Origin: an uncultured Gammaproteobacteria bacterium
GTDB taxonomy: Bacteria; Pseudomonadota; Gammaproteobacteria; UBA9214
Reading direction: 5' to 3'
NCBI GenBank assembly: GCA_963824045.1
Contig: CAWGNW010000012.1
Coordinates: forward strand, 1,415-65,414
DNA: 64,000 nt
The notes under the pieces are model-generated. The model was not told the DNA's origin. It was given only the letters and a program-made list of their open reading frames with translations, and ran no database searches. Made by a program: the position numbers and the translations under genes. This document shows positions 2,375 through 53,855 of this stretch, piece after piece (positions within the stretch are counted from its first letter, which is position 1; each line of letters opens with the position of its first letter).

Positions 2375-2830
2375 ATGCCCAATATCTTGGTGCTTAATGG
2401 TCCCAACCTGAATCTGCTGGGTACCCGCGAGCCCGAGCACTATGGCGCAACAACACTTGAAGAAATCCTTGACGATCTGGAGCAACAGGCCAATTCACAA
2501 GGCATCAAACTGGTCAGTTACCAAAGCAATGCCGAACATGAACTGATCGGCAAGGTTCAGGATGCACCAAACCAGGGCATTGATTTTATTGTAATTAACC
2601 CGGCAGCCCTGACCCATACCAGTGTCGGCTTGCGGGATGCCCTGCAGGCGGTCGGTATCCCGTTCATCGAGGTTCACCTGTCGAATATCCATGCCCGCGA
2701 GGCTTTCCGCAGGGAGTCGTTTTTCTCGGATATCGCCGTGGGTGTGATTTCGGGGTTGGGGCCGATTGGTTATGAACTGGCGTTGCGGGCGGCGGTGAAT
2801 TATCTGGAAAAAGTAAAAAGTAAGAAGTGA
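2375..2830 (+). CDS. aroQ: Type II 3-dehydroquinate dehydratase
   Basis: [29 protein letters not shown] motifs; aroQ-accB-accC synteny. Confidence 0.97.
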
Positions 2831-2849
2831 AAAGTAAAAAGTGAAAGTT
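2807..2849. repeat. Degenerate heptamer (GTGAAAA/GTAAAAA) tract, single arm, overlapping the aroQ stop
   Basis: GAAAAAGTAAAAAGTAAGAAGTGAAAAGTAAAAAGTGAAAGTT. Confidence 0.7.
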
Positions 2850-2910
2850 GCCAATCGCGGCGATAAGCCGAGTCTATACAAACAGGCATATCTGACAAAC
2901 AGGGTTTGAT

Positions 2911-3348
2911 ATGGATATTCGCAAAGTCAAAAAACTGATCGAACTGCTGGAAGAGTCGCAAATCGCCGAGATCGAGATTCACGAGGGCGAGGAATCGGTC
3001 CGCATCAGCCGGATGCAGGTCGCGGTGGCTGCGGCCCCTGTCGCCGTTGCGGCACCGGTCCCGGCGCCCGCCGCGGCCGCGGTAACCGCGCCTGCCGAGC
3101 CCGCCGCGCCTGAAGGTCATACCGTGACCTCGCCCATGGTCGGCACCTTTTACGAGGCATCTTCTCCCGGCGCGAAGCCGTTTGTCGAAATCGGACAGCC
3201 GGTGAACGTCGGCGATACCCTGTGCATCATCGAGGCGATGAAGATGCTCAACCAGATCGAGGCGGACAAGGCGGGTACGGTGTCTGCCCGTCTGGTCGAG
3301 AACGGTCAGCCGGTCGAGTTCGGTCAATCCCTGTTCGTGATCAGCTGA
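2911..3348 (+). CDS. accB: Acetyl-CoA carboxylase biotin carboxyl carrier protein
   Basis: [12 protein letters not shown], Ala/Pro linker, EAMKM biotinylation motif. Confidence 0.97.
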
Positions 3349-4688
3349 TGCTGGACAAGGTTGTGATCGCCAATCGGGGCGAGATCGCCCTGCGTATCCT
3401 GCGTTCCTGCCAGGAACTCGGTATCAGTACGGTGGCCGTCCATTCCACGGCCGACCGGGACCTGAAGCATGTGCTGCTGGCTGACGAGAGCGTCTGCATC
3501 GGGCCGGCCTCATCCGTTGACAGTTATCTGAATATTCCAGCCATAATCAGCGCCGCCGAGGTCACCGACGCCAGCGCCATCCATCCCGGTTACGGTTTTC
3601 TCTCCGAGAATGACGACTTTGCCGAGCAGGTGGAGCGCAGCGGCTTTATCTTCATCGGGCCGCGGCCGGAGACCATCCGCATCATGGGTGACAAGGTGGC
3701 TGCCATCCGCGCCATGAAGGAAGCCGGCGTGCCCTGTGTCCCGGGTTCCGATGGCTCCCTGACGGAAGACGATGAGGAAAATATCAGGCTGGCCAGAAAG
3801 ATCGGTTACCCGATCATCATCAAGGCCGCCGGGGGTGGCGGCGGCCGGGGAATGCGCGTGGTGCATGCCGAGGCAGCCCTGCCCGGGGCTATCTCGCTGA
3901 CCCGGACGGAAGCACAGAACGCCTTTAATAACAGCGTCGTGTACATGGAAAAGTTCCTCGAAAAGCCGCGGCATATCGAGTTTCAGGTGCTGGGCGATGG
4001 TGAGGGCAACGCCATACACCTGGGCGAGCGCGATTGCTCCATGCAGCGGCGCCACCAGAAAGTGGTGGAGGAGGCCCCGGCACCCGGCATCAGCGATGAG
4101 CAGCGAAACGCAATGGGGAAGCGCTGTGCCGAGGCCTGTGCCAAGCTGCACTATCGCGGCGCGGGGACTTTCGAGTTTCTCTATGAGAACGGCGAGTTTT
4201 ATTTCATCGAGATGAATACCCGGGTGCAGGTCGAGCACCCGGTTACCGAGATGATCACCGGTGTGGACATCGTGAAGGAACAGCTGTTTGTTGCCGCCGG
4301 CCTGGGTCTGTCGCACAAGCAGGAGGATATCCGTTGGCGGGGACATGCCATTGAGTGCCGCATCAACGCGGAAGATCCGAAGACCTTCATGCCGTCGCCG
4401 GGCACTATCAAGAGCTACCACGCCCCGGGAGGGCCCGGCATTCGCATGGATACCCATATCTACAACGGCTATTTCGTGCCGCCTTATTATGATTCCATGA
4501 TCGGCAAACTGATTGCCTATGGGGAAACGCGGGAATCGGCCCTGGCCCGCATGCGCGTGGCGCTGAATGAAATCGTCATCGAAGGCATCAAGACCAACGT
4601 GCCGCTGCAACGCGAAATCATCACCGACTGCGCCTTCATGAAAGGCGGCGCGGATATTCACTACCTGGAGAAGAAGCTGGGGCTGTAG
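3348..4688 (+). CDS. accC: Biotin carboxylase
   Basis: [39 protein letters not shown]; start overlaps the accB stop. Confidence 0.97.
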
Positions 4689-4738
4689 CTAGGTACGGCT
4701 TGATCAGGGTTTCCCCGATAGTGTGATTCTGGCTCTGT

Positions 4739-4809
4739 CCTGCAGGGGCGGTCTCCTGACCGCGTACCGGTTATCAACAATCGCGCCGGAGAGCGGCGCT
4801 CCTACAGGT
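4739..4809. repeat. GTAG-class REP doublet
   Basis: GCAGGGGCGGTCTCCTGACCGCG ... CGCGCCGGAGAGCGGCGCTCCTAC; same arms as at 5941, 8495 and 10298. Confidence 0.75.
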
Positions 4810-5001
4810 GGATTTACACCGAGGGGGTTTCTTTGGAAAGATCTGAATAAATCCCCTACGGTCATTCCGGTGTGTCTCGGTATCCTGAAAAACACCATGG
4901 ACCCCTGTCGCGCCGATGCGTCGATTGTTTCAGAACTTTCCCGGTGATTTCGTCGGGTGACTTGCCATAATGAAATTCTCCAGCTACTGATTGCCTGAAC
5001 C

Positions 5002-5877
5002 ATGCCCTGGCGACAATTTTCACTTGATGTCCGCGGCGACCAGGCGGATATGGTTTCTGCTATTTTCGACGACGCGGGCGCACTGTCCGTCACCATACTC
5101 GATGCTGCCGATGAACCGTTGCTGGAGCCGCTGCCGGGTGAGACCCCGCTGTGGAATAGCACCCGTATCGTTGCCCTGTTCGAAGCGGATGCCGATCCGC
5201 GGTCGCTGCAGGAAATCCTGCAGAACCTGCTTGAAAGCCCACTTCTGCAGCTGCAGGTCGAGCAACTCGATGACCGGGACTGGTCCACGACCTGGCGTGA
5301 CACCTTCGGTGCCATGTGTTTTGGCAAACGCCTCTGGGTGTGTCCGTTCGGGGAGGACCCCGTGCAAGCGGATGCAGTCGTCGTGCACCTGGACCCCGGA
5401 CTGGCCTTCGGAACGGGCACGCACGCAACAACCGCGCTGTGCCTGGAATGGCTCGATGTGCATCCGCCGGCCGGTATGTCCGTCATCGACTACGGCTGTG
5501 GTTCGGGGATTCTGGCCATCGCCGCACACAAGCTCGGAGCCGGTAGCGTCGTCGCGGTGGACATCGATCCCCAGGCGCTGCAGGCAACCCGCGAGAATGC
5601 CCTGCGCAACCAGATTGACGCGCGGCTCTCCGTGGTGCTCCCGCAGGACCTTGAGGCCGCGCCGGTCGATGTCGTTCTCGCCAACATCCTGGCAAATCCG
5701 CTGATCGAACATGCCGCATCGCTTGCCGGACTGGTGAGGCAGGGCGGTCATATCGTGCTGACCGGCATCCTGGCGGAGCAGGCCGGTGAGGTGATGGCGG
5801 CGTATCGCCGCTGGTTCGATTTCAGCGCCCCCGTACAGCGCGAGGAGTGGACCCTGCTGGCGGGGACGAGGCGGTAG
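5002..5877 (+). CDS. prmA: Ribosomal protein L11 methyltransferase
   Basis: LDPGLAFGTGTHATT, IDYGCGSGILAI, ANILANPL. Confidence 0.96.
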   Translation: MPWRQFSLDVRGDQADMVSAIFDDAGALSVTILDAADEPLLEPLPGETPLWNSTRIVALFEADADPRSLQEILQNLLESPLLQLQVEQLDDRDWSTTWRDTFGAMCFGKRLWVCPFGEDPVQADAVVVHLDPGLAFGTGTHATTALCLEWLDVHPPAGMSVIDYGCGSGILAIAAHKLGAGSVVAVDIDPQALQATRENALRNQIDARLSVVLPQDLEAAPVDVVLANILANPLIEHAASLAGLVRQGGHIVLTGILAEQAGEVMAAYRRWFDFSAPVQREEWTLLAGTRR

Positions 5878-5940
5878 TGTTTTTTCGATGCAAATAATCC
5901 ACCTGCAGGCGCCTTCTTCTGCGCAATTTTTTAAATGTAG

Positions 5941-6050
5941 CATCGCGGTCAGGCGACCGCTCCTACCCCACTCGTGCCACCGGTAGGAGCGTCGCCCTCC
6001 GGCGCGATTACCTGGTAACGCATCGCGGTCAGGAGACCGCTCCTGCAGGG
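5941..6050. repeat. GTAG-class REP cluster (three arms)
   Basis: ATCGCGGTCAGGCGACCGCTCCTAC, GTAGGAGCGTCGCCCTCCGGCGCGAT, ATCGCGGTCAGGAGACCGCTCCTGC. Confidence 0.8.
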
Positions 6051-6116
6051 GGCGCCAGAACCGAGCTGACAAATCGGTATTCGAAACGCGGCATGATTGG
6101 GGTTAGAATCACCGGC

Positions 6117-6875: not shown

Positions 6876-6984
6876 TTTCCGGGACTTGGCGGGGCTCCGC
6901 CAGCACGCTTTATCCGGCTGGCGTATAGGGGTATCATCTCCCGTCCTCAACCCTGCGGAAACCGATAGAGCTGCTGTCAGTTCG

Positions 6985-7971: not shown

Positions 7972-8231
7972 ACGTGCCGACGCAGCGGGAGCGTCGCAAG
8001 CAGCCGATCCGGCGCAGCGTCACCTCGGCACTGGAACTCTACCTGGGTGACATGAACGGGCATGAAGTCAACGACCTCTACCATGTGGTTCTCAGCGAGG
8101 TGGAGCCGGCGATACTCAATGTTGTCATGGATTACGTTGATGGCAACCAGAGCCAGGCTGCCGAAGTTCTCGGGATCAGCCGCAGCACCTTGCGCAAGAA
8201 GCTCAAGCTGTACGGGCTGGATGCCAATTGA
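7968..8231 (+). CDS. fis: Fis DNA-binding protein
   Basis: LYHVVLSEVE..GNQSQAAEVLGISRSTLRKKLK; dusB-fis operon. Confidence 0.93.
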   Translation: MNVPTQRERRKQPIRRSVTSALELYLGDMNGHEVNDLYHVVLSEVEPAILNVVMDYVDGNQSQAAEVLGISRSTLRKKLKLYGLDAN

Positions 8232-10281: not shown

Positions 10282-10290
10282 TTACATCAA

Positions 10291-10360
10291 GTGAGAGGTA
10301 GGAGCGCCGTCCTCCGGCGCGATCGCGGCCAGGAGGCCGCTCCTACATGTCACCTCTCAC
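10291..10360. repeat. GTAG-class REP doublet hairpin
   Basis: GTAGGAGCGCCGTCCTCCGGCGCGATCGCGGCCAGGAGGCCGCTCCTAC, flanked by GTGAGAGG/CCTCTCAC. Confidence 0.85.
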
Positions 10361-10380
10361 TGTCTTCATAGGGAGAAGGA

Positions 10381-11664
10381 ATGAACATCCTTATCATCGG
10401 TGGTGGCGGGCGCGAGCACGCACTGGCCTGGAAGGTGGCGCAGTCACCACTGGCCGGGCGCGTTTTTGTCGCGCCGGGTAACGCAGGCACCGCGCAGGAA
10501 CCCGGCCTGGAAAATGTCGCCATCGATGCGGGTGACATCGATGCGCTGCTGGCGTTTGCCCGGGAGCAGGACGTCGGTCTGACGATTGTGGGTCCCGAGG
10601 TGCCGCTGGTGGCTGGGGTCGTCGACCGCTTCAGTGCTGCCGGCCTGCGTTGCTTCGGCCCGTCACAGGCCGCTGCCCGGCTGGAAGGCTCCAAGACATT
10701 TTCCAAGGATTTTCTGGCGCGGAACGGGATTCCGACTGCGGCCTATGAAACGTTCACCGACAGTGTCGCGGCCGCCGGTTATATACGCCGGCAGGGGGCG
10801 CCGATCGTTGTGAAGGCGGATGGTCTGGCAGCCGGCAAGGGTGTGTTCCTGGCGCAGACCGAGGCGCAGGCCGTCGCGGCCGTCGAAGACATGCTGGCCG
10901 GCAATGTGTTCGGCGAGGCCGGTCACCGGGTGGTCATTGAGGAGTTCCTGCAGGGTGAGGAAGCCAGCTTTATCGTCATGGTCGACGGCGAGCACTGTCT
11001 GCCGCTGGCAACCTCGCAGGACCACAAGGCGCGCGACAACGGCGATACCGGCCCGAACACCGGTGGCATGGGGGCCTATTCCCCGGCGCCGGTGGTGACG
11101 CCGGCCATTCATGACCGGGTGATGCAGGAGGTGATTCTGCCGACCGTGAGCGGCATGGCCGCGGAAGGCAGTCCCTTTACCGGTTTTCTCTATGCCGGCC
11201 TGATGATCGCCGCCGACGGCACGCCGAAGGTGCTGGAGTACAATGTCCGCTTCGGCGATCCGGAAACCCAGCCTGTCATGCTGCGCCTGCACTCCGACCT
11301 TGTCGCGTTATGCCTTGCGGCAATGGATGGGCGTCTGGACAGCGTGACGGCTGAATGGGACACGCGCGTTTCACTGGGCGTGGTGATGGCAGCCGGCGGC
11401 TATCCCGATGCCTGTCGCAAGGGCGATGTCATTGAAGGTTTGCCACCGGTTGACGACAAAGACTGCAAGGTTTTTCATGCCGGAACAACAGCCCGGGGAG
11501 ATGCAGTGCTGACCAGCGGCGGACGCGTCCTGTGCGTGTGTGCGCTGGGTGATACGATTGCAGCTGCGCAGCAACAGGCCTACGCCTGTGTCGGCAGGAT
11601 CCACTGGCCGGATGTTTATTATCGTACTGATATCGGGTATCGGGCGATAGCTCGGGGAAAGTGA
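10381..11664 (+). CDS. purD: Phosphoribosylamine-glycine ligase
   Basis: GGGGREHAL, KADGLAAGKGV, GPNTGGMGAYSP, RFGDPETQ. Confidence 0.98.
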   Translation: MNILIIGGGGREHALAWKVAQSPLAGRVFVAPGNAGTAQEPGLENVAIDAGDIDALLAFAREQDVGLTIVGPEVPLVAGVVDRFSAAGLRCFGPSQAAARLEGSKTFSKDFLARNGIPTAAYETFTDSVAAAGYIRRQGAPIVVKADGLAAGKGVFLAQTEAQAVAAVEDMLAGNVFGEAGHRVVIEEFLQGEEASFIVMVDGEHCLPLATSQDHKARDNGDTGPNTGGMGAYSPAPVVTPAIHDRVMQEVILPTVSGMAAEGSPFTGFLYAGLMIAADGTPKVLEYNVRFGDPETQPVMLRLHSDLVALCLAAMDGRLDSVTAEWDTRVSLGVVMAAGGYPDACRKGDVIEGLPPVDDKDCKVFHAGTTARGDAVLTSGGRVLCVCALGDTIAAAQQQAYACVGRIHWPDVYYRTDIGYRAIARGK

Positions 11665-11785
11665 GAAGTTGAAAGTTAGAAGTGAGAAGTTAGTAGTGAG
11701 AAGTGAGAAGTGAAAAGAAGCGAGAATAACGACACCTGCCATCTATTTCTTTTCACTTCTCACTTTTTACTTTTCATCCTTTATC
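11657..11785. repeat. Heptamer inverted-repeat element (GTGAGAA arm - spacer - TTCTCAC arm)
   Basis: Purine arm overlapping the purD stop, short spacer, pyrimidine arm ending TCCTTTATC. Confidence 0.8.
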
Positions 11786-11798
11786 ATGGAGTTTAAAT

Positions 11799-12356
11799 AT
11801 GGAAATTTTCGGCTGGGTCATCGTGGCACTCATCGTCGGTATCCCGTTGTGGGGCGTCGCCCTCTACAACCGTCTGGTTGGTTTGCGCAACCAGGTCAAG
11901 AATGCCTGGCGCCAGATCGATGTGCAGCTGAAACGCCGCCATGACCTGATCCCGAACCTGGTCGAGGTCGTCAAGGACTACATGTCCTATGAGCAGGAAA
12001 CCCTGCAGAAGGTGATCCAGGCGCGTAACCAGGCGGTCAGCGCCGGCAGCCCGGAGGCCGCGATCGCTGCGGAAGGCATACTGGGCGGCGCCATGAGCAA
12101 GCTGTTCGCGCTGATGGAGAATTATCCCGACCTCAAGGCCAATGAAAATGTCTCGCGCCTGATGGAAGAATTGAGCGCGACTGAAAACAAGATCTCGTTC
12201 TCGCGGCAGTTCTACAATGACAGCGTCATGTCGCTGAACAATGCGGTGCAGGCGTTTCCTTCGAATATCGTTGCCGGCATGTTCCGCTTCACTGAGGCCA
12301 CGTATTTCGAGGTGCCGGAAACCGAGACCGCAACACCAAAGGTGGACCTGCGCTAG
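11799..12356 (+). CDS. lemA: LemA family protein
   Basis: YNRLV..IDVQLKRRHDLIPNLVE..ENYPDLKAN..ENKISFSRQFYND..FPSNIVA. Confidence 0.93.
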   Translation: MEIFGWVIVALIVGIPLWGVALYNRLVGLRNQVKNAWRQIDVQLKRRHDLIPNLVEVVKDYMSYEQETLQKVIQARNQAVSAGSPEAAIAAEGILGGAMSKLFALMENYPDLKANENVSRLMEELSATENKISFSRQFYNDSVMSLNNAVQAFPSNIVAGMFRFTEATYFEVPETETATPKVDLR

Positions 12357-12499
12357 CGACCGGTCTGTCTGCATGACGTCCTGCGGTTGCCCCGGGAAGA
12401 TGCCTGCGCTTGACTCGTGCAGGAAGTGTCGGCCGGGAATTGCCCGCGCGTGCCTGCGTTGTATCCTTTCTCTCTCTGTGTGACTGCGCCAGGCCACTG

Positions 12500-13594
12500 A
12501 TGCCGCTATCAGAAGACAACCGTTGTCCGGAGTGCGGCGCGCAGAATCGCATGCATGCCAGGGCCTGTCGCCAGTGCGGCACGCCGCTCGCCGCAGACTG
12601 GCAGCACAGTCGGCGCATGCGCAACAAGGTCCTGCGACGCACCGACTTCATGGCGGCCGCCCGTGCCAACCAGGCGGCAACCCGCCGGCTGGTGATTATT
12701 CTTCTCCTGATTCTCGGTGTGCTGGGTTATCTCATTGGCTGGAGTATGCAACTCGCCGGTGGTGAGCTGCCGCCAGGTGTGGAGACGGTCTGGTTTGTGA
12801 GCCGCTGGGGTGTGCTGGTGGCGCTGGTGCTGTTCGCCATCGGCAGCATCTGGTCATGGATCGCGTTTCGCCAGGGCGACCGGATCATCCTGCGGGTGAC
12901 GGGTGCCCGTCCGGTGACGCCGGACGAGGAGCCGGTATTGCATAACGTGGTGCAGGAAATGGCACTGGCCGCGGGCATCAGGGAGCCGCGGGTCTATGTC
13001 ATGGAAACCGATGCCCTGAATGCCTTTGCGACCGGAATGAGCCCGGCGCGTTCGGCCATCGGCGTCACCCGCGGCCTGCTGGATACGCTGGATCGAGAAG
13101 AACTGCAGGGCGTCATCGGTCACGAGATGGGCCATATCGTGAACTGGGATATCCGCTATGCCACGGCGGTGGGTGTCATCGTCGGCATGGTCGCGCTGGT
13201 CAGCGATGGCGCCTTGCGCTCGCTGTATTTCTCCGGGCGCTCTCGTAACTCGGGCAAGGGCGGGGCCGGGGCGGCGGTGATCCTGCTGGTGTTGCTGGTA
13301 TTTGCGGCACTCGCGCCTTTGTTTGCCCTGCTGGTGCAGATGGCGGTTTCGAGACAGCGTGAATTCCTTGCGGATGCAACCAGCGTGCGCCTGACACGCC
13401 ACCCGCAGGGCTTGATCTCCGCGCTGGAAAAGCTGGCTGCCGGCGCGAAGCCGTTCAAGGGCGCCAACCGCGCCACCCAGCACATGTTCATTGTCAATCC
13501 CTTCAGGAACTTCAGGGAAAACAGCAGTCGGCTCTATGCGACCCACCCGCCGCTGGAGTTGCGGATAAACCGGTTGCGGAACCTGGGAGGTTGA
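12500..13594 (+). CDS. HtpX-like M48 zinc metalloprotease with N-terminal zinc ribbon
   Basis: NAFATG, HEMGH, SRQREFLADA, THPPLELRI; CPECG..CRQCG at the N-terminus. Confidence 0.9.
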   Translation: MPLSEDNRCPECGAQNRMHARACRQCGTPLAADWQHSRRMRNKVLRRTDFMAAARANQAATRRLVIILLLILGVLGYLIGWSMQLAGGELPPGVETVWFVSRWGVLVALVLFAIGSIWSWIAFRQGDRIILRVTGARPVTPDEEPVLHNVVQEMALAAGIREPRVYVMETDALNAFATGMSPARSAIGVTRGLLDTLDREELQGVIGHEMGHIVNWDIRYATAVGVIVGMVALVSDGALRSLYFSGRSRNSGKGGAGAAVILLVLLVFAALAPLFALLVQMAVSRQREFLADATSVRLTRHPQGLISALEKLAAGAKPFKGANRATQHMFIVNPFRNFRENSSRLYATHPPLELRINRLRNLGG

Positions 13595-13710
13595 AAGAAA
13601 GTAAAAGGTGAACAGTGAAAAGTGAGGAGAGGCGGGTAGCGTTACAGTCATCCTGACAAACATCCACTTGTTTCACGTTTCACTTATTACTTTTCACTTA
13701 GTCCTTTATC
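13594..13710. repeat. Degenerate heptamer inverted-repeat element between convergent htpX-like and rho
   Basis: GTAAAAGGTGAACAGTGAAAAGTGAGG ... TTTCACGTTTCACTTATTACTTTTCACTT..TCCTTTATC. Confidence 0.75.
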
Positions 13711-14962
13711 TTTTCATCGATTCGAAGAATTCGGCGTTGTTCTTGGTGGCTTTCAGCTTGTCGAGCATAAACTCCATGGCGGCGAGTTCGTCCATCGGAT
13801 GCAGCAGCTTGCGCAGGATCCACATCTTCTGCAGTTCCTTGGGGTCGGTCAGCAGTTCCTCGCGGCGGGTACCGGAGCGATTGATGTTGATTGCCGGGTA
13901 AACGCGCTTCTCGGCAATCTTCCTGTCCAGGTGTATTTCGTGGTTGCCGGTGCCCTTGAACTCTTCATAGATAACGTCGTCCATGCGTGAACCGGTGTCA
14001 ATCAGCGCGGTGGCCAGGATGGTCAGGCTGCCGCCTTCCTCGATATTGCGCGCGGCGCCGAAGAAACGCTTCGGACGCTGCAGGGCGTTGGCGTCGACAC
14101 CGCCTGTCAGGACCTTGCCGGATGAGGGTACGACCGTGTTATAGGCGCGTCCGAGCCGGGTGATGGAGTCCAGCAGGATCACCACGTCGCGCTTGTGCTC
14201 GACCAGGCGGCGCGCCTTTTCGATAACCATCTCGGCGACCTGTACATGCCGGCTGGCGGGTTCGTCAAAGGTGCTCGAGACCACTTCGCCATTTACCGAA
14301 CGGGTCATTTCGGTGACTTCCTCGGGACGTTCATCGATCAGCAGTACAATCAGGTAACACTCCGGATAATTGGAGGTGATCGACTGGGCAACGTTCTGCA
14401 GCAGCATGGTCTTGCCCGCCTTGGGCGGCGAGACGATCAGGCCGCGCTGGCCCTTGCCCAGCGGCGCGACCATGTCAATGATGCGTGCGGTGATGTCTTC
14501 CGTGCTGCCGTTGCCGCGCTCCAGGGTAAGGCGCTCATTGGGATGCAGCGGCGTGAGATTTTCGAAGGCGACCTTGTTTTTCGCATTCTCCGGCTTTTCA
14601 TAATTGATCTCGCTCACCTTGAGCAGCGCGAAATAGCGCTCGCTGTCCTTGGGTGGGCGGATCTTGCCATCCACCGTGTCGCCGGTGCGCAGGCTGAAGC
14701 GCCGGATCTGGCTGGGTGAGACATAGATATCGTCCGGTCCTGCCAGGTAGGAACTGTCCGCTGAGCGCAGGAACCCGAAACCATCCTGGAGTATTTCCAG
14801 GACACCGTTCCCGAAAATATCCTCGCCTTTCTTGGCGTGTGACTTGAGGATGGAAAAGATGATGTCCTGCTTGCGGGATCGTGCGGTTCCCTCGATGCCC
14901 ATCTCCTGGGCGATTTCTATCAGCTCCGCGGCTGGTTTCAGCTTGAGTTCGGAAAGGTTCAT
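13706..14962 (-). CDS. rho: Transcription termination factor Rho
   Basis: [33 protein letters not shown]. Confidence 0.99.
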
Positions 14963-18315: not shown

Positions 18316-20358
18316 ATGAAAACTCCGGTCAAGATTGGATGGCTTGCTGCTGGTGTGGCTGGTGATTGCCCTGCCGCTGCGCGCCGAAACAGTTACCCTG
18401 AATCTCAAGGATGCTGATATCGGCGCCCTGATCAGCACGGTTGCCGAAGTCACCGATCGAAACTTCATCGTCGATCCCCGGGTAAAGGGCAAGGTGACCG
18501 TGATTTCGACCCGGCCGATGGACAGTGACGAGGTCTACCAGGTCTTTCTTTCGATTCTGAAGGTCCACGGTTTTGCCGCCGTACCCAGCGGCGAGGTCAT
18601 CAAGATCGTGCCCGATGTCAATGCCAAGCAGGACGGTATTCCAACCACAACTGAGGCCGAGCCGGGACAGGGTGACGAGATGGTTACCCGTGTCATACAG
18701 GTCGACAACGTCACGGCCGCTCAGCTGGTGCCGATTCTGCGTCCCCTGGTTCCGCAGCAGGGGCATCTCGCGGCATATCCCGCGACCAATGTTCTGATCA
18801 TTTCCGACCGGGCCAACAACGTGGAGCGCCTGGTTAGTATCATCCACCGCATTGACCAGGTTAGCGACAGTGAAATCGAGGTGATTCCGCTTGAACACGC
18901 CTCTGCCGTGGAAGTGGTGCGGGTACTGACCAGTCTGAATCGCGCGGTTCCCGGCCAGCAGGCAGGGGCTGGAACAGACGGGCCGATACTGGTTGCAGAC
19001 GAACGCACCAATAGCGTTCTGCTCGGTGGTGACCATGCTGATCGACTGCGCATGCGGGCGATAATTTCCCATCTGGATACCCCGCTGGATAGTGGGGGCA
19101 ATACCGATGTGATCTACCTGCGCTATGCCGAGGCCGCCGAAATCGTCGATACCCTGATGGGTGTCGGAAAGATCGAGGAAAAGGAGTCGCAGCAGGGGAA
19201 AGACCACCACGACTCGCGGTGTGTTCGATATCCAGGCAGACGAGTCGACCAACTCCCTGGTGATCACCGCACCACCCGACATCATGCGTACCCTGAAACG
19301 CGTCATAAGCCAGCTGGATATTCGCCGGGCCCAGGTGCTGGTCGAGGCGGTGATTGCCGAGGTGTCGGCTGATACCACGCGCGAGCTGGGAGTGCAGTGG
19401 ATATTTTCCGGCGCCAAGGACGGCGAAGGCCCCATTGGCGTGGTTAATTTCACCAATTCGGGCAGCCCGGTCGCGGATGTGATCAATGGCGCTGCGGCTG
19501 TGGCAAATGGCGGAACGTTTCCCGAGTATCGTTGACAACGCGCTGCTCGGCTTTGGCAGGACTAACGGCAGCTTCAACTACGTCGCCGTCATGAATGCAC
19601 TGGCATCCGACGCCAATACCAATATCCTGTCGACGCCGACGCTGGTGACGCTCGACAACGAGGAGGCCGAAATCGTCATTGGCGAGAATGTTCCGTTCGT
19701 GACCGGCTCCTTTACGAGTACCGGTGGTGCTGACGGTGCGACCAACCCGTTTCAGACCATTCAGCGTGAGGACGTGGGCCTGACGCTGAAGATCAAGCCG
19801 CAGATCAACGAGGGCGACGCGCTGCGCCTGGAGATCGAGCAGGAGGTTTCCAGCATAGCCGATAGTGTGGCCGGCGCCTCCGACCTGGTCACCAATAAAC
19901 GTTCGATCAAGACCAATGTGATGGTGGATAATGGCCAGGTTGTCGTACTGGGTGGCCTGATCGAGGAGAATGTCCGGGAAAGCAAGCAAAAGGTCCCGCT
20001 ACTCGGCGACATTCCGCTGCTGGGCGCACTGTTCAGGTCAAGCACGGGTGATGTGGAGAAAACCAACCTGATGGTGTTCATCCACCCGGTTATTCTGCGT
20101 GACGCCGCCGTCACCAATCTCTATACAAACAACAAGTACAACTACATCCGCTCGCTGCAGCTTGATCAGGATGAGGACGGTGTCAACCTGATGCCGGACG
20201 CCAACCATCCGGCACTGCCGCGTCTGGAGGAGTTTTCCGGGATCTCCGCCCCGGCGGCGGAGCCAGCCGTGTCGGATGCCCCTGCCGTTGAAACCGCACC
20301 GCCCGATGCGGCAGAAGAGTCCGGCACGGTGGTGCACGACAGCTTCCTGGATAACTGA
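18316..20358 (+). CDS. gspD: Type II secretion secretin D (frameshifts near 18320, 19200, 19521)
   Basis: [51 protein letters not shown] spread over consecutive frames. Confidence 0.9.
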
Positions 20359-30311: not shown

Positions 30312-31992
30312 ATGAGTAACAAGCTGAATCGCTACAGTTCCCGTATCACGCAGCCCAAATCACAGGGCGCTTCCCAGGCCATGCTTTACGGCACTGGTCT
30401 CACCGCTGAGGATATGGACAAGGGACAGGTCGGCATATCCAGTGTCTGGTACGAGGGCAATACCTGCAATATGCATCTCAATGACCTGGCCGCCAGGGTG
30501 CGTGAAGGCGTGCGCGCTGCCGGTCTGGTCGGCATGCGCTTCAACACCATCGGGGTGAGTGACGGGATTTCCATGGGTACCGATGGCATGAGCTATTCAT
30601 TGCAGTCCCGCGACCTGATCGCGGACTCGATCGAGACCGTGATGTCCGCGCAGTGGTACGACGCCAATATCTCGATTCCGGGCTGCGACAAGAACATGCC
30701 CGGCTGCCTGATCGCCATGGGCCGGCTGAATCGTCCCGCACTGATGGTCTACGGCGGCACCATCAAACCGGGGCATTACCATGACCAGACGCTGGATATC
30801 GTGTCGGCGTTCCAGAGTTATGGCGAGTTTATTGCCGGCAAGATCGACGAGGAGACACGCCATGGCATCGTCAACCATGCCTGCCCCGGCGCGGGTGCGT
30901 GCGGTGGTATGTATACGGCGAATACCATGGCCTCGGCGATCGAGGCGCTGGGCATGTCACTGCCCTACAGTTCATCCACGCCGGCGGTGGACCCGGTCAA
31001 ACTGGAAGAGTGTTTCAATGCGGGCCAGGCGATCCGTAACCTGCTGGAAAGGGACATCAAGCCGCGCGACATTATGACGCGAGCGGCGTTTGAAAATGCC
31101 ATGGTTATCGTGATGGCACTCGGCGGGTCGACCAATGCCGTGTTGCACCTGATTGCCATGGCGCGGGCGGTCGATGTCCCGCTGACCATTGACGATTTCC
31201 AGTTGGTCAGCGACCGTATCCCGTTTCTCGCCGATCTCAAACCCAGCGGCAGGTATGTCATGGAGGATCTGCACGATGCGGGCGGGACCCCGGCAGTGAT
31301 GAAGTACCTGCTGGACGAGGGGTTGATGACAGGAGACTGTCTGACGGTGACCGGCAAACACGCTGGCCGAGAACCTGCAGTCACTGCCCGGTCTGGCGGT
31401 GGGGCAGGAGGTTATCCATCCCCTGAACGATCCCATCAAGCAGACCGGCCATATCCAGATTCTCAAGGGCAATCTTGCGCCGGGCGGCTCGGTGGCGAAG
31501 ATCACCGGCAAGGAAGGGCTGCAATTCAAGGGGCCGGCAAAGGTATACGATTCCGAGGAGGCCATGCTCGAGGCGCTGGAAGACGGGTATATCAGCAAGG
31601 GTGACGTGGTGGTGATCCGTTATGAAGGTCCCAAGGGCGGTCCCGGCATGCCGGAGATGCTGACGCCGACCTCGGCGATCATGGGTGCGGGACTGGGCAA
31701 GGATGTGGCCCTGTTGACGGACGGCCGTTTCTCGGGGGGGTCGCACGGCTTTATCATCGGGCATATTGTTCCCGAGGCACAGGAAGGCGGACCGATCGGG
31801 TTGCTGCGGGACGGGGACATTATCAGCATTGATGCCGAGCATAAAACTCTCTCGGTTGCGGTCAGCGATGCGGAACTGGAGCAGCGCCGTCGTGACTGGC
31901 AGATGCCGCCTTACAAGGCGCAGCGCGGTACGCTGTACAAGTATATACAGCAGGTACGCAATGCATCGGACGGCTGTGTCACCGACGAGTAA
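30312..31992 (+). CDS. ilvD: Dihydroxy-acid dehydratase (frameshift near 31359)
   Basis: [29 protein letters not shown]; then [13 protein letters not shown] and TDGRFSGG in the +1 frame. Confidence 0.95.
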
Positions 31993-36304: not shown

Positions 36305-37225
36305 ATGAGAAAACGCATCGTGTGGCTGGTCGCAATCCTCGCAGGTTGCGGGTTGTTGTTGCCTGGCATGCCGGTGCGCGCGGATCCCGCGGTAAGGGTA
36401 CTCGATGATGCCGGACATACGATCGTGCTTGACGCCCCGGCGCGGCGCATTGTGAGCCTGGCTCCGAACCTGACCGAACTGCTGTACGCGGCAGGTGCCG
36501 GAGACGCAATCGTGGGCACCTCCGAATTCAGCGATTACCCGGCGGCAGCCCGAGACATTCCCCGCATCGGCGGCGGCGGCGGCCTGGACATCGAGGCGAT
36601 CATCGCCCTGCAACCGGACCTTGTGGTCGCCTGGCAAAGCGGTAATCCCGATGGCCAGCTGGAGCGCCTGCAGGCGCTCGGGATGACGTTGTTCCTGTCC
36701 GAGCCGCGGCAGTTGCTGGATGTGCCGGGGACGCTTGTCCGGCTGGGGCGGCTGGCGGGCCATGAACAGGTCGCGCAGGCCGCGGCACGTGCCTTTGCTG
36801 TGCGCTACCGGGAATTACAGCGGCGATATTCCGAACGCCCGACTGTCGATGTCTTCTACCAGGTCTGGCGACAGCCGCTGATGACAGTAAACGGGAAACA
36901 CCTGATCAGCGATGTCATACGTTTATGTGGCGGGCGCAACGTGTTCAGTGACCTGCCGGTACTCGCGCCGCAGGTCGACATCGAGGCGGTGCTTGCTGCG
37001 GATCCCGCGGTGATCATCGTTGGCACGGGTGGCACCAGTGAAACCGCTGAGTTGCAGGACTGGAAACGCTGGCCGATGCTGGCGGCAGTGGCGGGTGGAC
37101 ACCTGTACGGGGTGCAGCGCGAACTGCTGGTGCGGCACAGTCCGCGCATACTGGAAGGCGCCGGGCAGGTGTGCAGGATTCTGGAAAAAGTGAGAAGTGA
37201 AAAAGGTGAGAAGGGGAAAAAGTGA
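36305..37225 (+). CDS. btuF: Cobalamin-binding periplasmic protein
   Basis: RIVSLAPNLTELLYAAG, SDYP, DIEAIIALQPDLV, CGGRNVF; lies in the B12 locus. Confidence 0.88.
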   Translation: MRKRIVWLVAILAGCGLLLPGMPVRADPAVRVLDDAGHTIVLDAPARRIVSLAPNLTELLYAAGAGDAIVGTSEFSDYPAAARDIPRIGGGGGLDIEAIIALQPDLVVAWQSGNPDGQLERLQALGMTLFLSEPRQLLDVPGTLVRLGRLAGHEQVAQAAARAFAVRYRELQRRYSERPTVDVFYQVWRQPLMTVNGKHLISDVIRLCGGRNVFSDLPVLAPQVDIEAVLAADPAVIIVGTGGTSETAELQDWKRWPMLAAVAGGHLYGVQRELLVRHSPRILEGAGQVCRILEKVRSEKGEKGKK

Positions 37226-37490
37226 AAAGTTAAAAGTAAAAAAGTGACGGGTCAGGTGTTGACAGGGCAGTGGAATCGGCCATCATCCTGATCACTTCTC
37301 ACTTCTCACTTCTCACTTCTCACTTCTCACTTCTCACTTCTCACTTCTCACTTCTCACTTCTCACTTCTCACTTCTCACTTCTCACTTCTCACTTCTCAC
37401 TTCTCACTTCTCACTTCTCACTTCTCACTTCTCACTTCTCACTTCTCACTTCTCACTTCTCACTTCTCACTTTTCACTTCTCACTTCTTT
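37184..37490. repeat. Heptamer inverted-repeat element with 28 x TCACTTC
   Basis: Degenerate purine arm, conserved spacer, array at 37292-37487 (27 perfect units and 1 variant). Confidence 0.95.
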
Positions 37491-38029
37491 CATGCCGCCA
37501 GAAGACATCCGGTTTGCCGGCCAGGCGGTTGAACTCCCGGGCGATCACAAACAGCAGGTCGGAGAGGCGATTCAGGTAGCCGACTGCGGCCGGGTTGACG
37601 GCTTCCCTTTGCGAAAGCGTGTACAGGCGGCGTTCCGCCCGCCGGCAGATGGCCCGTGCAAGATGGCAGGCTGCCGCCGCTGAGGATACCGCCCGGCAGG
37701 ATGAATTCCTTCAGTGGCGGCAGCGCTTCATTGAGCGCGTCCAGCCATTGTTCCAGCCGGGTTACCCGCTCTCCCGTGAGACAGGCGGTTCCCGGCATGC
37801 TGAGTTCACCGCCCAGGTCGAACAGTGTGTGCTGGATTTCCGTGAGTATGGTGTCGAGGGTTGCCGGCGGCGCATGCGCGAGAACGGTTCCGATGGCGCT
37901 GTTGAGTTCATCGATGGCACCGATTGCCTCGATTCTGGGGTGGTCCTTGGCGATGCGGGCACCATCGGATAGACCGGTGCTGCCATCGTCGCCGGTCCGG
38001 GTATAAATCCTGGTAAGGCGGTTGCCCAT
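37474..38029 (-). CDS. PduO-type ATP:cob(I)alamin adenosyltransferase (frameshift near 37687)
   Basis: [26 protein letters not shown]; then [14 protein letters not shown] in the shifted frame. Confidence 0.9.
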
Positions 38030-38030
38030 G

Positions 38031-38693
38031 TCAGCCCTCCAGCAGCCGGTATTCAACAGGCAGTATCAGGTCAACATGGCGGCCTTGCAGCCATGTGCCT
38101 GCGTTCGGAAGCCGCGCCAGCCGCGAGAGGCTGTTGATGGCGGCAGTGTTCAGTACCTCGTAGGGCGATGGCTCGACCAGATGCAGCCGGGTCAGGTTGC
38201 CGTTGGCCTCGATACGCAGCCCGACTCGCACAATGCCTTCCCAGCCCCGCCGGCGTGCCAGCAGCGGGTAACTGAAATGCGGCATTAATGCCGTGTGCAG
38301 GCTGTCGAGCAACTGTTGCTCAAGTGTCGCCGTGCGGGTCGCGGTTGCCGCTGCCTGCTGCTGTGTACTTCCGGCGGGGGCATCGGTGTCGGGCAGGTTC
38401 TCCGCAACTGCGGGGAGTGTGGCGGGAAGCCTTGCGGGGTGGCGCTGTGGCAGAAATCTCTCCGCTGCAGTGGTTGTCTGCAATGTCGCAGCCTGTTGCG
38501 TTTTGACAGCGGCTGCCATCCCGTCGCTGGTCGGGCGGCTTTCCGGGGTACTCCCGGGTGCCGGCACCAGTCTGACGATGACCGGGCCAGCCAGCCAGTT
38601 TAGCTGCGGCCGGTCGCTGCGTGCCACGAGCAGGGCGGCCGCATGCAGGGCCAGCGAGATGGCAAGAAAGTGGCTGAGACGGGGGCTGAGCAT
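38031..38693 (-). CDS. TonB family energy transducer
   Basis: SLALH TM motif; YPLLARRRGWEGIVRV C-terminal domain. Confidence 0.87.
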   Translation of the reverse strand: MLSPRLSHFLAISLALHAAALLVARSDRPQLNWLAGPVIVRLVPAPGSTPESRPTSDGMAAAVKTQQAATLQTTTAAERFLPQRHPARLPATLPAVAENLPDTDAPAGSTQQQAAATATRTATLEQQLLDSLHTALMPHFSYPLLARRRGWEGIVRVGLRIEANGNLTRLHLVEPSPYEVLNTAAINSLSRLARLPNAGTWLQGRHVDLILPVEYRLLEG

Positions 38694-40641: not shown

Positions 40642-40763
40642 GGTGTCTTCCTCGTGTATGCAGCGCACACCCGCGCCGCCGGTTATCGGGCGCAGAGGAA
40701 GAGAGACAGGGTGGAAATTATTGCGTCTGTCTGCATCGCCCCCCGCGATACGTCCAAGTCAGA

Positions 40764-40951
40764 ATTTCAGGCCGGTCTCCGGGCTTGCGAGCGGGATTAT
40801 CCCCGGTGAACCGCCTTCCCGCGCTGTGCGCAGTGGCATACTGGTTCACCTAGACTCGCTTACCGTTGCGGGGGCAGCGCCGGAATTGTCAGGTTGACGC
40901 ACCGGCTTCCCGTTTCATCCCTTGAACGAAGGTTCTCGGGACACCTGAAAC
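40764..40951 (-). ncRNA. Cobalamin riboswitch
   Basis: AAACGGGAAGCCGGTG..TTCCGGCGCTGCCCCCGCAACGGTAA..GCCACTG..GGGAAGGC..AGCCCGGAGACCGGCC (B12 box). Confidence 0.95.
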
Positions 40952-40988
40952 TAAGCTGTGCCGACTCTAAGTCCCTCGTTGCGGGCTG

Positions 40989-48937: not shown

Positions 48938-49032
48938 GAACGGGCAGAACTATCGCGCGGCTGAACCCGGCGCGCACGCCACAGTGGCTGCCAGGCCGGG
49001 GCCGCTGGCGTGCGCGTTTGTTTGCGCCGTTG

Positions 49033-49839: not shown

Positions 49840-50350
49840 TGGCTGCCTGTGTTTGTTGAGTCAGATACAGGGCGAGGCGCGCCAGTTTCTTCAGCGCACG
49901 CACCGACAGGGTGGCACCCGAGATGCCGTCAATGTGCCGGTCCAGCTGCCGGTCCGCAGTCAGCCCGATCCCGTCGAACTGGTCGGTGAAGAAGGGATAG
50001 CGCACCTCCCAGCCGCGGCTTTCCCGGAAATCCAGCACCCGCAGCAACTCCATTCCCGCGGGGCCGACGACCAGCCCCACGGTTATGGGTTTTTCCTTGC
50101 CGATTTCCTCCAGTATCCAGGCTGTGCGACCGTCCTGTTCCCAGTAGCGAATGCGCAGGCCGGGATAGGGATGCCCGAGAATCGCGGCCGCTGATTCCCT
50201 GACGTCCCCGTTCAGCCACAGTACCTGTGGCGAAGGGGGCGTATTCGCAAACACTTCATGCAGGAAGGCATCCGTTGTCTGGTAGCTTTCGCCGGCGACT
50301 GTGCTGGCGGCAGCCAGCAGCGTCAGAAAAGTCAGGAGTCTGAAGTACAT
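49817..50350 (-). CDS. Exported FMN-binding domain protein
   Basis: Signal peptide; RESRGWEV; DGISGATLS flavinylation-type motif. Confidence 0.85.
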   Translation of the reverse strand: MYFRLLTFLTLLAAASTVAGESYQTTDAFLHEVFANTPPSPQVLWLNGDVRESAAAILGHPYPGLRIRYWEQDGRTAWILEEIGKEKPITVGLVVGPAGMELLRVLDFRESRGWEVRYPFFTDQFDGIGLTADRQLDRHIDGISGATLSVRALKKLARLALYLTQQTQAANDPPPRD

Positions 50351-50405
50351 TGCTGCCTAGCTTACCAGAATGGATCTGCATTTCCGGCAGGATACCGGGC
50401 GCCGC

Positions 50406-51644
50406 TCAGAACTGGTAGCCGATGCCCAGATCGAAGGCATCGAAATCGCTGTAACCGGGAGGGGAGGCCGTGCTCGCCATGTCATAGTCACGGCTGCGGT
50501 AGTCCACTTTCAGTACGACACCCTCGTCGGGCCAGAAGTTGGCACCGATTTCCCACTGGTTGAACTGGTCCTGATCGCGTGCCGCGTCGACATCTTCATA
50601 GCGGGTGTAGAATCCGAGCTTATCCCACGGCTTGTAGCTGGGTTCTATGTACCAGCCGCTCTGGGTTTCATCCCCCGCCGCCTCGACGGCCGAGCCATTG
50701 AAATCCCACTGCGCATACAGTGCGCGCAGGGCGAACGGGCCCTGCTGGTAAACCGCATGGGTTTCATACAGGATGCCCTCGTTCAGGCCGTCACCGCTGA
50801 TCTGCGAGGCATCCGTCTGGTAGTTGAGGCTGGCGGCAAGTTCCAGCCCGGAAATTCCGGTGTACTTGATGCGCCCGGTATAGGCAAGGTCGTTGGCATC
50901 CGCCTCGGAGCTTTCTTGCCGGCCGTCGCGAACCACGAAGGCGTCGCTGCCGGTGGTTTCCATCTTGAGGCCCTCGGTCACGGCCAGGTTCCAGCTGATG
51001 CCGTTGTCAAAATAACCGTTGATTCCGGCGCCGCCCGCCCACCACGATGTGGGGATGATAATGTTTTCAACATCGTTGCGTTCCACGCCATAAAACGTCG
51101 TCGGTTCATGGGTTTCGTTGATAATGCCGACGGGCAGCAGAAACACGCCGCCGCGCGCCTGCAGAGCGTCCTTCAGGTCAAACTCAACATAGGCCTCTTC
51201 CACTTCCACTTCTTCATTGTCATGCTCGATCTCGAATTCGGAGAAGAAACGAATGCTGTCGGTAAATTCATGGCCGACGTACAACACGAAGCGGTGCAAG
51301 TCGATTTCATCGTAGTCGTTGGCCGAGTCGTCGGCGTTGACATTGTTGTAGTGCAGTTCACCATAGCCACCGATGGTGGTTTTGTCGGCCCAGCTGCCGG
51401 CACTGGATGACCTCGTGGCAGATTCTTCCACGGCAACGACCGCAGCTTCCGCTTTTTCCCCTGCGTCGGTCGCTGTTTTTGCGGTGTCTGCCTGTTGCTT
51501 TTTCAGCGCATCGATTTCTGCCTGCTGTGCCTGGATAATCTGCCAGAGCTGTTCGATCGTCGGCGCGCCGGAAGCCTCCGGGAAGGCCGGTACGGCGTAC
51601 ACCAGAAGACCGGCCATAAAAAGTGGGAGGAATGGGTGATTCAT
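50406..51644 (-). CDS. Outer-membrane porin with N-terminal coiled coil
   Basis: Signal peptide, GGYGELHYN, FFSEFEIEH, NETHEPTTF, C-terminal GIGYQF. Confidence 0.85.
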   Translation of the reverse strand: MNHPFLPLFMAGLLVYAVPAFPEASGAPTIEQLWQIIQAQQAEIDALKKQQADTAKTATDAGEKAEAAVVAVEESATRSSSAGSWADKTTIGGYGELHYNNVNADDSANDYDEIDLHRFVLYVGHEFTDSIRFFSEFEIEHDNEEVEVEEAYVEFDLKDALQARGGVFLLPVGIINETHEPTTFYGVERNDVENIIIPTSWWAGGAGINGYFDNGISWNLAVTEGLKMETTGSDAFVVRDGRQESSEADANDLAYTGRIKYTGISGLELAASLNYQTDASQISGDGLNEGILYETHAVYQQGPFALRALYAQWDFNGSAVEAAGDETQSGWYIEPSYKPWDKLGFYTRYEDVDAARDQDQFNQWEIGANFWPDEGVVLKVDYRSRDYDMASTASPPGYSDFDAFDLGIGYQF

Positions 51645-51701
51645 CGGTGTCTCCGGGTGAGTGATTATTGACAGTCGAGTATTCTACGAATTATAAAGAC
51701 A

Positions 51702-51723
51702 AATGCAAATCATTCTCATTAAC
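51702..51723. promoter_or_regulatory. Putative Fur box
   Basis: Minus-strand GTTAATGAGAATGATTTGC matches 14/19 of GATAATGATAATCATTATC, about 60 bp upstream of the porin start. Confidence 0.7.
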
Positions 51724-51918
51724 GATATCTGTCGGATGCAAAAGTGGGTGTGTCCAGGGTTCGTCCTGTGATATCAACTTGTTGTATTGGAAAATGAAAC
51801 CTGTGTCCTTGTCGGGTAATCCCATCCCCAATCAGGGAGACTGGTAACAGGCATCTTCTGCCCTTATATTCAATCCATGCGGGGATGGTCCCTGTGACAA
51901 CAAGTGACGGAGTGGGAT

Positions 51919-52311
51919 ATGACACAGGCTGCAACTGATTTCAGGATGGAACTGGCGGAAAGCGACGTCGCTCTGACGGCCGCCGCCCGCGAGAAGATGA
52001 TCGAGCTGTTCAACCAGGTTGAAGATGATGACCTCAAGGCGATACGGGTGTTCGTGTCCGGGGGTGGCTGCGGTGGTATGGGTTACGGTATGACCTTTAC
52101 CGACAGTCGCACGGAATATGACTGTGTGCGCACGGAAGACGGATTTGAAATCTACGTCGATGCCGTTGCCCTGAATTTCCTGCGGGGTGTCGAGATCGAC
52201 TACGTAGAGCGCCCTACCGGCGCCAGCTTCATATTCAACAATGCCTTTGCCATTACGGGCGGCTCGGGTACCTGCGGTGCCTGCGGTGCTGCTGGCGGAG
52301 GATGTGCCTGA
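51919..52311 (+). CDS. HesB/IscA-family Fe-S carrier (variant C-terminus)
   Basis: LTAAA..IRVFVSGGGCGGMGY..VD..FLRGVEIDYV..CGACG. Confidence 0.88.
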   Translation: MTQAATDFRMELAESDVALTAAAREKMIELFNQVEDDDLKAIRVFVSGGGCGGMGYGMTFTDSRTEYDCVRTEDGFEIYVDAVALNFLRGVEIDYVERPTGASFIFNNAFAITGGSGTCGACGAAGGGCA

Positions 52312-53575
52312 TCCGGGCAACCAGCAGGCGCGTCCGCGCCTCCTGCTGATAGCACCGCCCGGCAGTTACCGGACTGTCGCCTACCTGGAGACTGCCCGCA
52401 ACCTGGGCGTGGATGTGCTGGTTGCGTCAGAGGGCAAGCACTCCCTTGTAGGTGAGATCGCGGCCGGCCTGCATGTCGACCTGCACAGCCCGGGCGCGCT
52501 GCATCTCCTGCTGCAAGCAAACGAGGTGCGACCTTTCAGCGGCGTGGTCGCGACGGACGATGCCAGCGTCGAACTGGCCAGCAGGATCGCCCGGGCGCTC
52601 GACCTGCCGCACAATCCTCCGCATGCTGCAAAATTGTCCCGTCGCAAGGACTTGTCGAGGCAGGCGCTGCAACAGGCCGGCGTGCCGGTCCCGGCATTTC
52701 GCGTGGTTGACCTCGCTGCACCGCTCAGGGATCAGCTACAGGACATTGATTTTCCCTGTGTGATTAAACCCCTGGCCATGTCTGCCAGTCGCGGTGTCAT
52801 ACGTGCCGATAATCCGGCGGCTGTGGAAACGGCCTGTGTCCGGGTGCAGGCCCTGCTGCGGGAAACAGCGGGCAGGGATCCGTTTGCGGATTCGCACGTG
52901 CTGGCCGAACAGTTTGTCCCGGGACCGGAGGTGGCACTGGAGGGCCTGTTGCAGCAGGGGCGGCTGCAGGTGCTTGCGATCTTCGACAAGCCCGATCCAC
53001 TGGATGGGCCGTATTTCGAGGAGACTTATTACATCACCCCGTCGCGGCATTCCGGTGCCTTGCAGCGGAGCCTGGTTGACTGCGTGCAGGCGGCATGCGC
53101 CGCGCACGGCTTGCGGGAAGGCCCGGTGCATGCGGAAGCGAGACTGCCGCGCGATGGTTGCGTCATCATGGAAGTGGCTGCCAGGACCATTGGCGGGGAG
53201 TGCGCACGGCTGCTGGATTTCGGCACCGGGCATAGCCTGGAGGCGCTGGTGATCTCACATGCCATCGCCAGGCCCCTGCAGTTTGAACCGCAGGCGGGTG
53301 GGGCTGGTGTCCTGATGTTGCCGATCACCAGCGCCGGCATTCTGCGCCGCATTGAGGGCATCACGGCAGCGCGCGCAGTGCCCTGGATTGAGGATATCCT
53401 GATCAGCCGGCGCGATGGCTATGAACTGGTGCCGCTGCCGGAAGGCAACAGCTACCTGGGTTTCATGTTTGCCCGCGCGCCGACCGCTGCGCAGGCGGAA
53501 TCCGCGCTGCGTACGGCGCATGCCAGTCTGAAGGTTGTGACGGCGCCGCTGCTGCGGATTGAGGACCGGCGCTGA
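52304..53575 (+). CDS. ATP-grasp ligase (L-amino-acid-ligase-like)
   Basis: FPCVIKP..SASRGVIRAD, EQFVPGPEVALEG, GPVHAE, MEVAARTIGG; start codon uncertain. Confidence 0.85.
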   Translation: MPDPGNQQARPRLLLIAPPGSYRTVAYLETARNLGVDVLVASEGKHSLVGEIAAGLHVDLHSPGALHLLLQANEVRPFSGVVATDDASVELASRIARALDLPHNPPHAAKLSRRKDLSRQALQQAGVPVPAFRVVDLAAPLRDQLQDIDFPCVIKPLAMSASRGVIRADNPAAVETACVRVQALLRETAGRDPFADSHVLAEQFVPGPEVALEGLLQQGRLQVLAIFDKPDPLDGPYFEETYYITPSRHSGALQRSLVDCVQAACAAHGLREGPVHAEARLPRDGCVIMEVAARTIGGECARLLDFGTGHSLEALVISHAIARPLQFEPQAGGAGVLMLPITSAGILRRIEGITAARAVPWIEDILISRRDGYELVPLPEGNSYLGFMFARAPTAAQAESALRTAHASLKVVTAPLLRIEDRR

Positions 53576-53855
53576 GAAGCTAGCTAAAAGTGAAAAGTGA
53601 GAAGTGAAAAGTCAAAAGTAAAAAAGTGAAGGGTCAGGGGTTGACAGGGCAGTGGAATCGGCCAGTATCCTGATCACTTCTCTCTCTCCTCTCACTTCTC
53701 ACTTCTCACTTCTCACTTCTCACTTCTCACTTCTCACTTCTCACTTCTCACTTCTCACTTCTCACTTCTCACTTCTCACTTCTCACTTCTCACTTCTCAC
53801 TTCTCACTTCTCACTTCTCACTTCTCACTTCTCACTTCTCACTTCTCACTTCTTC
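53573..53855. repeat. Heptamer inverted-repeat element with 23 perfect TCACTTC units
   Basis: Same core as 37184-37490; array at 53692-53852. Confidence 0.95.

Follow-up and report, generated by a model that had tools for sequence, protein, structure and literature searches.

Tandem heptamers are known from several bacterial settings. In Xanthomonas, GGGAATC units lie between genes in arrays of mostly four, with 70-75 inverted pairs per genome; their purine- and G-rich strand comes just after stop codons, array length and sequence vary among related species, and the arrays have been read as G-quadruplex DNA (Rehm et al. 2015, PMC4692102). In Coxiella and Leptospira, intervening sequences (IVSs) of the 23S ribosomal RNA (rRNA) gene are described as carrying an S23p (PF05635) open reading frame (ORF) within complementary ends that form a long stem; heptamers in tandem, variable in themselves, precede the ORF (Warrier et al. 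2016, PMC4990558). Two parts of the system treated here are therefore known, namely gene-less inverted heptamer pairs (PMC4692102) and heptamers at the Coxiella IVS (PMC4990558). Our subject is a family of heptamer-armed hairpin elements in a 64-kb stretch of DNA (the window) from an uncultured gammaproteobacterium of the UBA9214 lineage (assembly GCA_963824045.1, contig CAWGNW010000012.1). The reading that we favour, with somewhat more confidence than doubt, is that these tracts are gene-less copies of a heptamer-armed IVP/S23p cassette, likely a non-autonomous dispersed element gained at gene ends.

The cassette itself is found elsewhere in the genome of the window (labelled G000; relatives bear other G-numbers). 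Between dsbD and prsR, an intact IVP/S23p gene encoding 120 amino acids (G000:C13:160909-161235) is enclosed by arms like those of the window copies (Table 1). A sequence-only reading of the window had suggested a four-helix-bundle (IVP-like) gene as a candidate partner and had proposed a search for copies that enclose an ORF, and both ideas are borne out at this one locus. The protein matches PF05635 and TIGR02436 and is homologous to 2GSC (E = 1e-29), which is described as a pentamer (PMC4990558). The gene is also present at the same junction in G012. In G017 this junction has arms around nested repetitive extragenic palindromes (REPs), and ∼45 nt of the loop match the stop region and trailer, that is the 3' end, of the G000 gene with a score of 48, which was reached by none of 2000 shuffles, while 12 control loops scored 36 or less. 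Because the same arms with the same polarity surround the IVP gene, and because of this remnant, the gene-less copies were assigned to the IVP cassette. The remnant ties the gene-less to the gene-bearing form at one site, without giving a direction.

A survey of 80 related loci in named genomes of many phyla, 77 of them with usable flanks, is in agreement with this assignment. A period-7 array is present on at least one flank at 64 of the 77 IVP loci versus six of 63 controls, on both flanks at 29 versus none, and the flanks are complementary at 54 versus none. The heptamer word varies from locus to locus and the polarity is common: G exceeds C in 40 of 47 upstream arrays and C exceeds G in 41 of 46 downstream ones. 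GGG occurs in just 16 of the 47 upstream arrays. No Rfam match was obtained in 20 of the IVP loci (the G000 locus, L001, and 19 others).

Like the G-quadruplex repeats of Xanthomonas and Nostoc, the G000 arrays consist of heptamers, often in inverted pairs, with the purine strand after stop codons. Unlike the Xanthomonas repeats, their unit (AAGTGAG/AAGTGAA) has no GGG and cannot form a G-quadruplex. The main text of PMC4692102 has no mention of xcc0516, S23, four-helix proteins or intervening sequences; its passages on the Xanthomonas pairs report no association with mobile elements, and none of the loop inversion, copying and cargo seen in the G000 family. With the 23S IVSs, as described in PMC4990558, the G000 cassette shares the protein family and an ORF within complementary ends; unlike them, it is flanked by the protein genes dsbD and prsR rather than lying within an rRNA gene, and most G000 copies lack an ORF. 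REPs and REPINs with their RAYT partners are described as short palindromes that follow genes, whether the junction is tandem or convergent, and as having a rare gene bordered by the same repeats (Di Nocera et al. 2013, PMC3733652). The heptamer elements use similar junctions, share them with REPs and can have REPs nested inside them, but their arms are tandem heptamers without a GTAG/CGTC tag, and their partner gene encodes a four-helix bundle instead of an HUH transposase. The TAACTGA heptamers of the Beggiatoaceae, also Gammaproteobacteria, are intergenic, lie at gene boundaries and are patchy across taxa (MacGregor 2015, PMC4679880); unlike the G000 inverted pairs they are described as direct repeats before start codons, and the main text of that paper draws no link to IVP. 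Avd of the diversity-generating retroelements is described as a pentameric, positively charged, S23-like barrel that contacts structured RNA (bioRxiv 10.1101/2023.10.23.563531). Unlike the situation for Avd, no reverse transcriptase adjoins the G000 IVP gene. In literature that excluded most subscription journals, we found no paper that joins heptamer hairpins to IVP genes outside rRNA or that describes loop exchange.

Two sources of enzymatic activity were considered and rejected. Of the seven reverse-transcriptase matches in the genome, the two that could be classified are of the group II intron type and none is beside the IVP gene, which speaks against a reverse transcriptase as the source of the repeats. 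Three Y1-transposase loci have no arm words, which speaks against a RAYT as mobiliser. A reverse-transcriptase fragment (G000:C12:1-411) is located ∼1 kb before the window.

In the window, all five tracts of the sequence-only reading are real, four of them paired (purine arm, a loop of 36-44 nt and pyrimidine arm) and the copy at 2807 single-armed; a sixth, minimal copy had been overlooked. The stop codons of aroQ, purD, htpX, btuF and the ATP-grasp gene are each overlapped or directly followed by a tract, and three copies do lie between convergent genes, as had been claimed. Placement at gene ends holds for these five copies, while genome-wide two or three loci touch no gene 3' end; a position at a gene 3' end is thus the rule but is not universal. 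The statement that no transposase is nearby proved incorrect, since only ∼0.8 kb separates an IS3-type (insertion sequence) remnant and the 2807 copy. No arms surround this remnant, no link to the element was found and it is not counted as part of it. The gene names lemA and prsR are in part presumed; NCBIfam gives a weak MamQ match and a PEP-CTERM response regulator. Three genes of the window, pduO (37490-38056), gspD (18335-20358) and ilvD (30312-31992), appear split or frameshifted, probably through assembly indels.

Table 1. Positions of the IVP/S23p cassette, the window copies of the element and a neighbouring transposase remnant. Positions without a contig label are those of the window; z compares folding with shuffles.
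Feature	Position	Strand	Context	Details	Fold z
IVP/S23p cassette	G000:C13:160829-161361		Between dsbD and prsR	Four-helix-bundle ORF within complementary ends	
Purine arm only, 5-6 units	2808..2846	+	Overlaps aroQ stop; aroQ to accB junction	Decayed REP-like loop comes next; no pyrimidine arm	-0.03 (no signal)
Minimal copy	10289..10361	.	purH to purD	1-2-unit arms around GTAG-type REP pair	
Paired element	11659..11776	.	Overlaps purD stop; purD to lemA	8 purine units, ∼37-nt loop, 3-4 pyrimidine units	-3.1
Paired element	13598..13707	.	Convergent htpX and rho on either side	36-nt loop	-2.8
Paired element	37184..37488	.	Convergent btuF and pduO	Loop family A at 37250-37293; long arm of 28 near-perfect TCACTTC units on pduO-end side	-5.0
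Paired element	53586..53853	.	Convergent ATP-grasp gene and yggX	Loop family A at 53632-53675; long arm of 23-26 near-perfect TCACTTC units on yggX-end side	-6.2
IS3-type transposase remnant	1294..1994	-	∼0.8 kb from 2807 copy	No arms	

The scan of the whole genome that the sequence-only reading had suggested gave 48 arms in the 3.56-Mb G000 assembly and none in two local shuffles (chain detector). These arms group into 29 loci (19 paired, nine pyrimidine-only and one purine-only), and their orientation is non-random, with the purine arm first in all 19 paired loci. Convergent junctions hold ten of the 29 loci versus 310 of all 2384 junctions (p = 0.003); ∼15 loci are between tandem genes and two or three between divergent starts, after correction by hand, from the gene calls, of the automatic orientation assigned to two loci. 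AAGTGAG (144) and AAGTGAA (82) are the commonest units, together 226 of 371, and the census contains no unit with a G-run. Every reading frame of the purine arm contains a stop codon, whereas the pyrimidine arm is free of them; the coding ends of aroQ, purD, btuF and dsbD now lie inside an arm. The anatomy resembles that of a miniature inverted-repeat transposable element, with terminal inverted repeats, many dispersed copies and no coding capacity. A cognate DDE transposase would have matching ends; the IS3-type remnant lacks arms. Two further elements, at G000:C10:169629 and C10:186298, both appear to be downstream of copies of tuf (named from the flanking sequence), the latter with a loop of just 10 nt.

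Filled and empty sites were compared in 37 genomes of the genus, using a FastTree tree from a gappy 13-gene alignment. The array pattern is matched in 16 genomes and has no match in 21; seven are array-rich, mainly in two non-sister clades of this tree, and the window junctions are armed in both. In other species the same junctions hold REPs, other palindromes, other heptamer words or a bare gap of 15-16 bp, and the ATP-grasp/yggX junction in particular is bare (15-16 bp) in nine relatives. Long arrays recur at the same sites in independent assemblies of other species. The comparison, which had been proposed from the window alone, reveals lineage-specific fillings. At metG, arms are confined to the G000 clade (G000 and G001), G048 retains a remnant and the array-rich G012 and G017 are bare, while at gspF it is G012 that is filled and G000 that is bare. 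At the purH/purD junction G017 has full arms at the site of the minimal G000 copy, G048 has half a REP at aroQ/accB, and between dsbD and prsR G048 carries CGTC-type repeats on either side of a nuclease-like gene. Judged from these alignments, gains at single sites are lineage-specific and the arms long-lived. Together with the IVP gene between the same arms and the period-7 flanks of IVP loci, these sites uphold the earlier suggestion of a dispersed non-autonomous element. The metG junction of G009 (L355) and G049 (L359), and also L197, show that other lineages have heptamer-like inverted tracts of other words at the same junctions.

The loops turn over fast: 25 orthologous comparisons gave 11 loops that are the same, four that are inverted and ten that are unrelated, a count in which C17:237277 is left as the same although by eye it looks inverted. 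At the window sites nine of ten are unrelated. The inversions are clear in the sequences themselves, and one of them was seen in a pair of assemblies with 10-20 contigs each. The two loop A copies of the window are identical at 41 of 44 positions; this loop is present at four G000 sites and was not seen between arms in the 36 other genomes. One loop of G012 is likewise present at two sites. Loop contents include REPs, CGTC-type repeats, IS remnants, a nuclease gene (presumably GIY-YIG-like, by its motifs), a 580-aa low-GC gene and kilobase cargo. At C13:155336-158192, arms surround 2.7 kb of low-GC DNA, in place of 87 bp in G048. A gene of 370 aa adjacent to hisD, for which no match in the 36 relatives was among the matches listed, lies between two direct copies of the whole element where G048 has a single copy. 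Such cargo flanked by element copies is the pattern expected from integration or deletion via recombination between copies. Arms and loops behave separately, a point overlooked in the sequence-only reading: arms stay at gene ends, while loops flip, are copied and get replaced.

At G000:C11:283088-283809, a lone pyrimidine arm has immediately inside it a gene pair that we take to be an antitoxin and toxin; at this junction the element of G006 is paired and lacks the two genes. Repeats are also nested in a regular order, with heptamer arms outermost, then CCACGGAA-type arms and then REP/CGTC-type palindromes (L067, L069, L070, L078 and L079, which are the dsbD/prsR junction in relatives; also L015 and L035). 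The centre is sometimes occupied by what we take, from its motifs, to be a GIY-YIG-like or RAYT-like gene. There are 39 matches to CCACGGAA-type arms across G000, and these arms probably make up another family of this type that lacks a gene. Their presumed partner is a GxxExxY gene, of which none was found in G000 (an 85% complete genome).

The elements disperse and persist, and their loops turn over; how they are mobilized we infer as follows. New copies would favour gene ends that naturally resemble a single unit (AAG or AAA plus stop), and would be tolerated because the purine arm, always read first, stops all three frames. Polymerase slippage may then lengthen one arm, and host recombination or template switching between arms may invert the loop within a site and exchange loops between sites. 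The transcript is predicted to form an A/U-rich stem of 25-40 bp that RNase III could cut or that could protect against decay from the 3' end, by analogy with IVS stems and REPs. The best candidate for a trans-acting factor of the family is the IVP pentamer, which is related to the RNA-binding Avd and might bind the heptamer arrays; this step, drawn by analogy, is the weakest and we regard it as doubtful. Both yggX and prsR end in AAG/AAA-stop in every relative read (30 and 19 rows).

Several observations weigh against the cassette as the parent of the tracts. In a test of the lysine-stop ends that was set beforehand, metG passed (30 of 30 end in AAG/AAA) and murA failed (4 of 30), and seeding at such ends is tentative because of this split. 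IVP was found in just three of the 37 genus genomes and in two of the seven that are array-rich. In G048 (95% complete) the array pattern matches 55 times but no IVP was found, and in G015 the IVP is broken and the array pattern has no match. The G017 remnant would fit loss and insertion of the gene equally well. Homology to the IVP cassette is not general among the short loops (best z 2.9-3.5). Inspection by eye of filled/empty alignments, in which the empty alleles have diverged, showed no target-site duplication. Three of the four inversions involve the fragmented assembly G001, and we know of no catalytic activity of IVP. The idea that short loops are plain deletion products of the IVP cassette was set aside as unsupported in general, a remnant being found only in the G017 copy at the IVP site.

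The order of events could be reversed. Hairpins made first by the host, as microsatellite foldbacks arising through slippage and template switching, would offer loops as landing sites, and IVP would be a specialized passenger that homes in on them rather than the parent. The variety of unrelated passengers (REPs, CGTC-type repeats, the GIY-YIG-like gene, IS remnants and the 580-aa gene), the persistence of arrays in IVP-free genomes and the different heptamer words at the same junction in different lineages all suit this scenario, and slippage has been proposed for heptamer abundance (as cited in PMC4692102). It leaves unexplained the fixed purine-first polarity and the appearance at new sites of a two-armed unit with a shared loop (loop A, four sites), and it sits poorly with the tight association of IVP across phyla; we consider it unlikely. 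A G-quadruplex repeat of the type proposed for Xanthomonas, which has the same placement (GGGAATC pairs, PMC4692102), or an assembly artefact is highly improbable. Long perfect arrays are hard to assemble and apparent frameshifts occur in this assembly (pduO), but other species, assembled independently, have arms at the same junctions, G-runs are absent from the units and GGG is infrequent upstream of IVP genes. Unit sequence and conservation across species largely refute this explanation.

The tracts could instead be RNA modules selected by the host and kept at gene ends, as bidirectional terminators, Rho-loading tracts or 3' stabilizers. The four paired window copies can indeed fold back, as was originally noted, with z values of -2.8 to -6.2. 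These stable stems, the excess at convergent junctions, the REPs at the same junctions in other species and the conservation of sites across species that are ∼75% identical would all fit. Rho utilization sites are G-poor and C-rich, and the long pyrimidine arms are likewise G-free and C-rich. Yet a scan of 11300-14100 gave four terminator-like matches, none of them on either of the two elements in that interval; roughly half the loci are tandem with two or three between divergent starts, the ATP-grasp/yggX junction is bare in nine relatives and 21 of the 37 genomes have no array-pattern match. We judge such modules quite improbable. As an origin, the bidirectional terminator built from a microsatellite, offered as an alternative in the sequence-only reading, is not supported in view of the same scan, the tandem loci and the bare junctions of many relatives. 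An RNA-level side effect of the elements is nevertheless likely. The gene rnc is present in the genome, and by analogy the long A/U-rich stem would resemble the RNase III-cut stems of IVSs as described in PMC4990558 more than an intrinsic terminator, in which a U-tract comes after a short GC-rich stem. The only Rfam match in the window is a cobalamin riboswitch (40753-40963, minus strand), upstream of btuB.

Read as gene-less copies of an IVP/S23p cassette, the elements likely connect a single gene family with the 7-base repeats that have lacked an explanation in bacteria. Since the unit has no G-run, this class of heptamer repeat cannot in general be explained by G-quadruplexes. A wider proposal, which we think rather unlikely as a whole, is that intergenic heptamer repeats of bacteria, G-rich or not, are the dispersed binding and landing arms of a transposase-free mobile system, with the IVP/S23p pentamer as trans factor and seeding at lysine-stop ends, and that the arm pairs form an integron-like platform in which loops are inverted and exchanged and capture foreign genes. 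The comparisons add that arm pairs at core-gene junctions invert and exchange what they enclose and acquire foreign genes. Two long-standing puzzles, why 7-bp repeats are in excess in bacterial genomes and what IVP/S23p does, would become one question, namely whether the pentamer binds its cognate heptamer and promotes copying.

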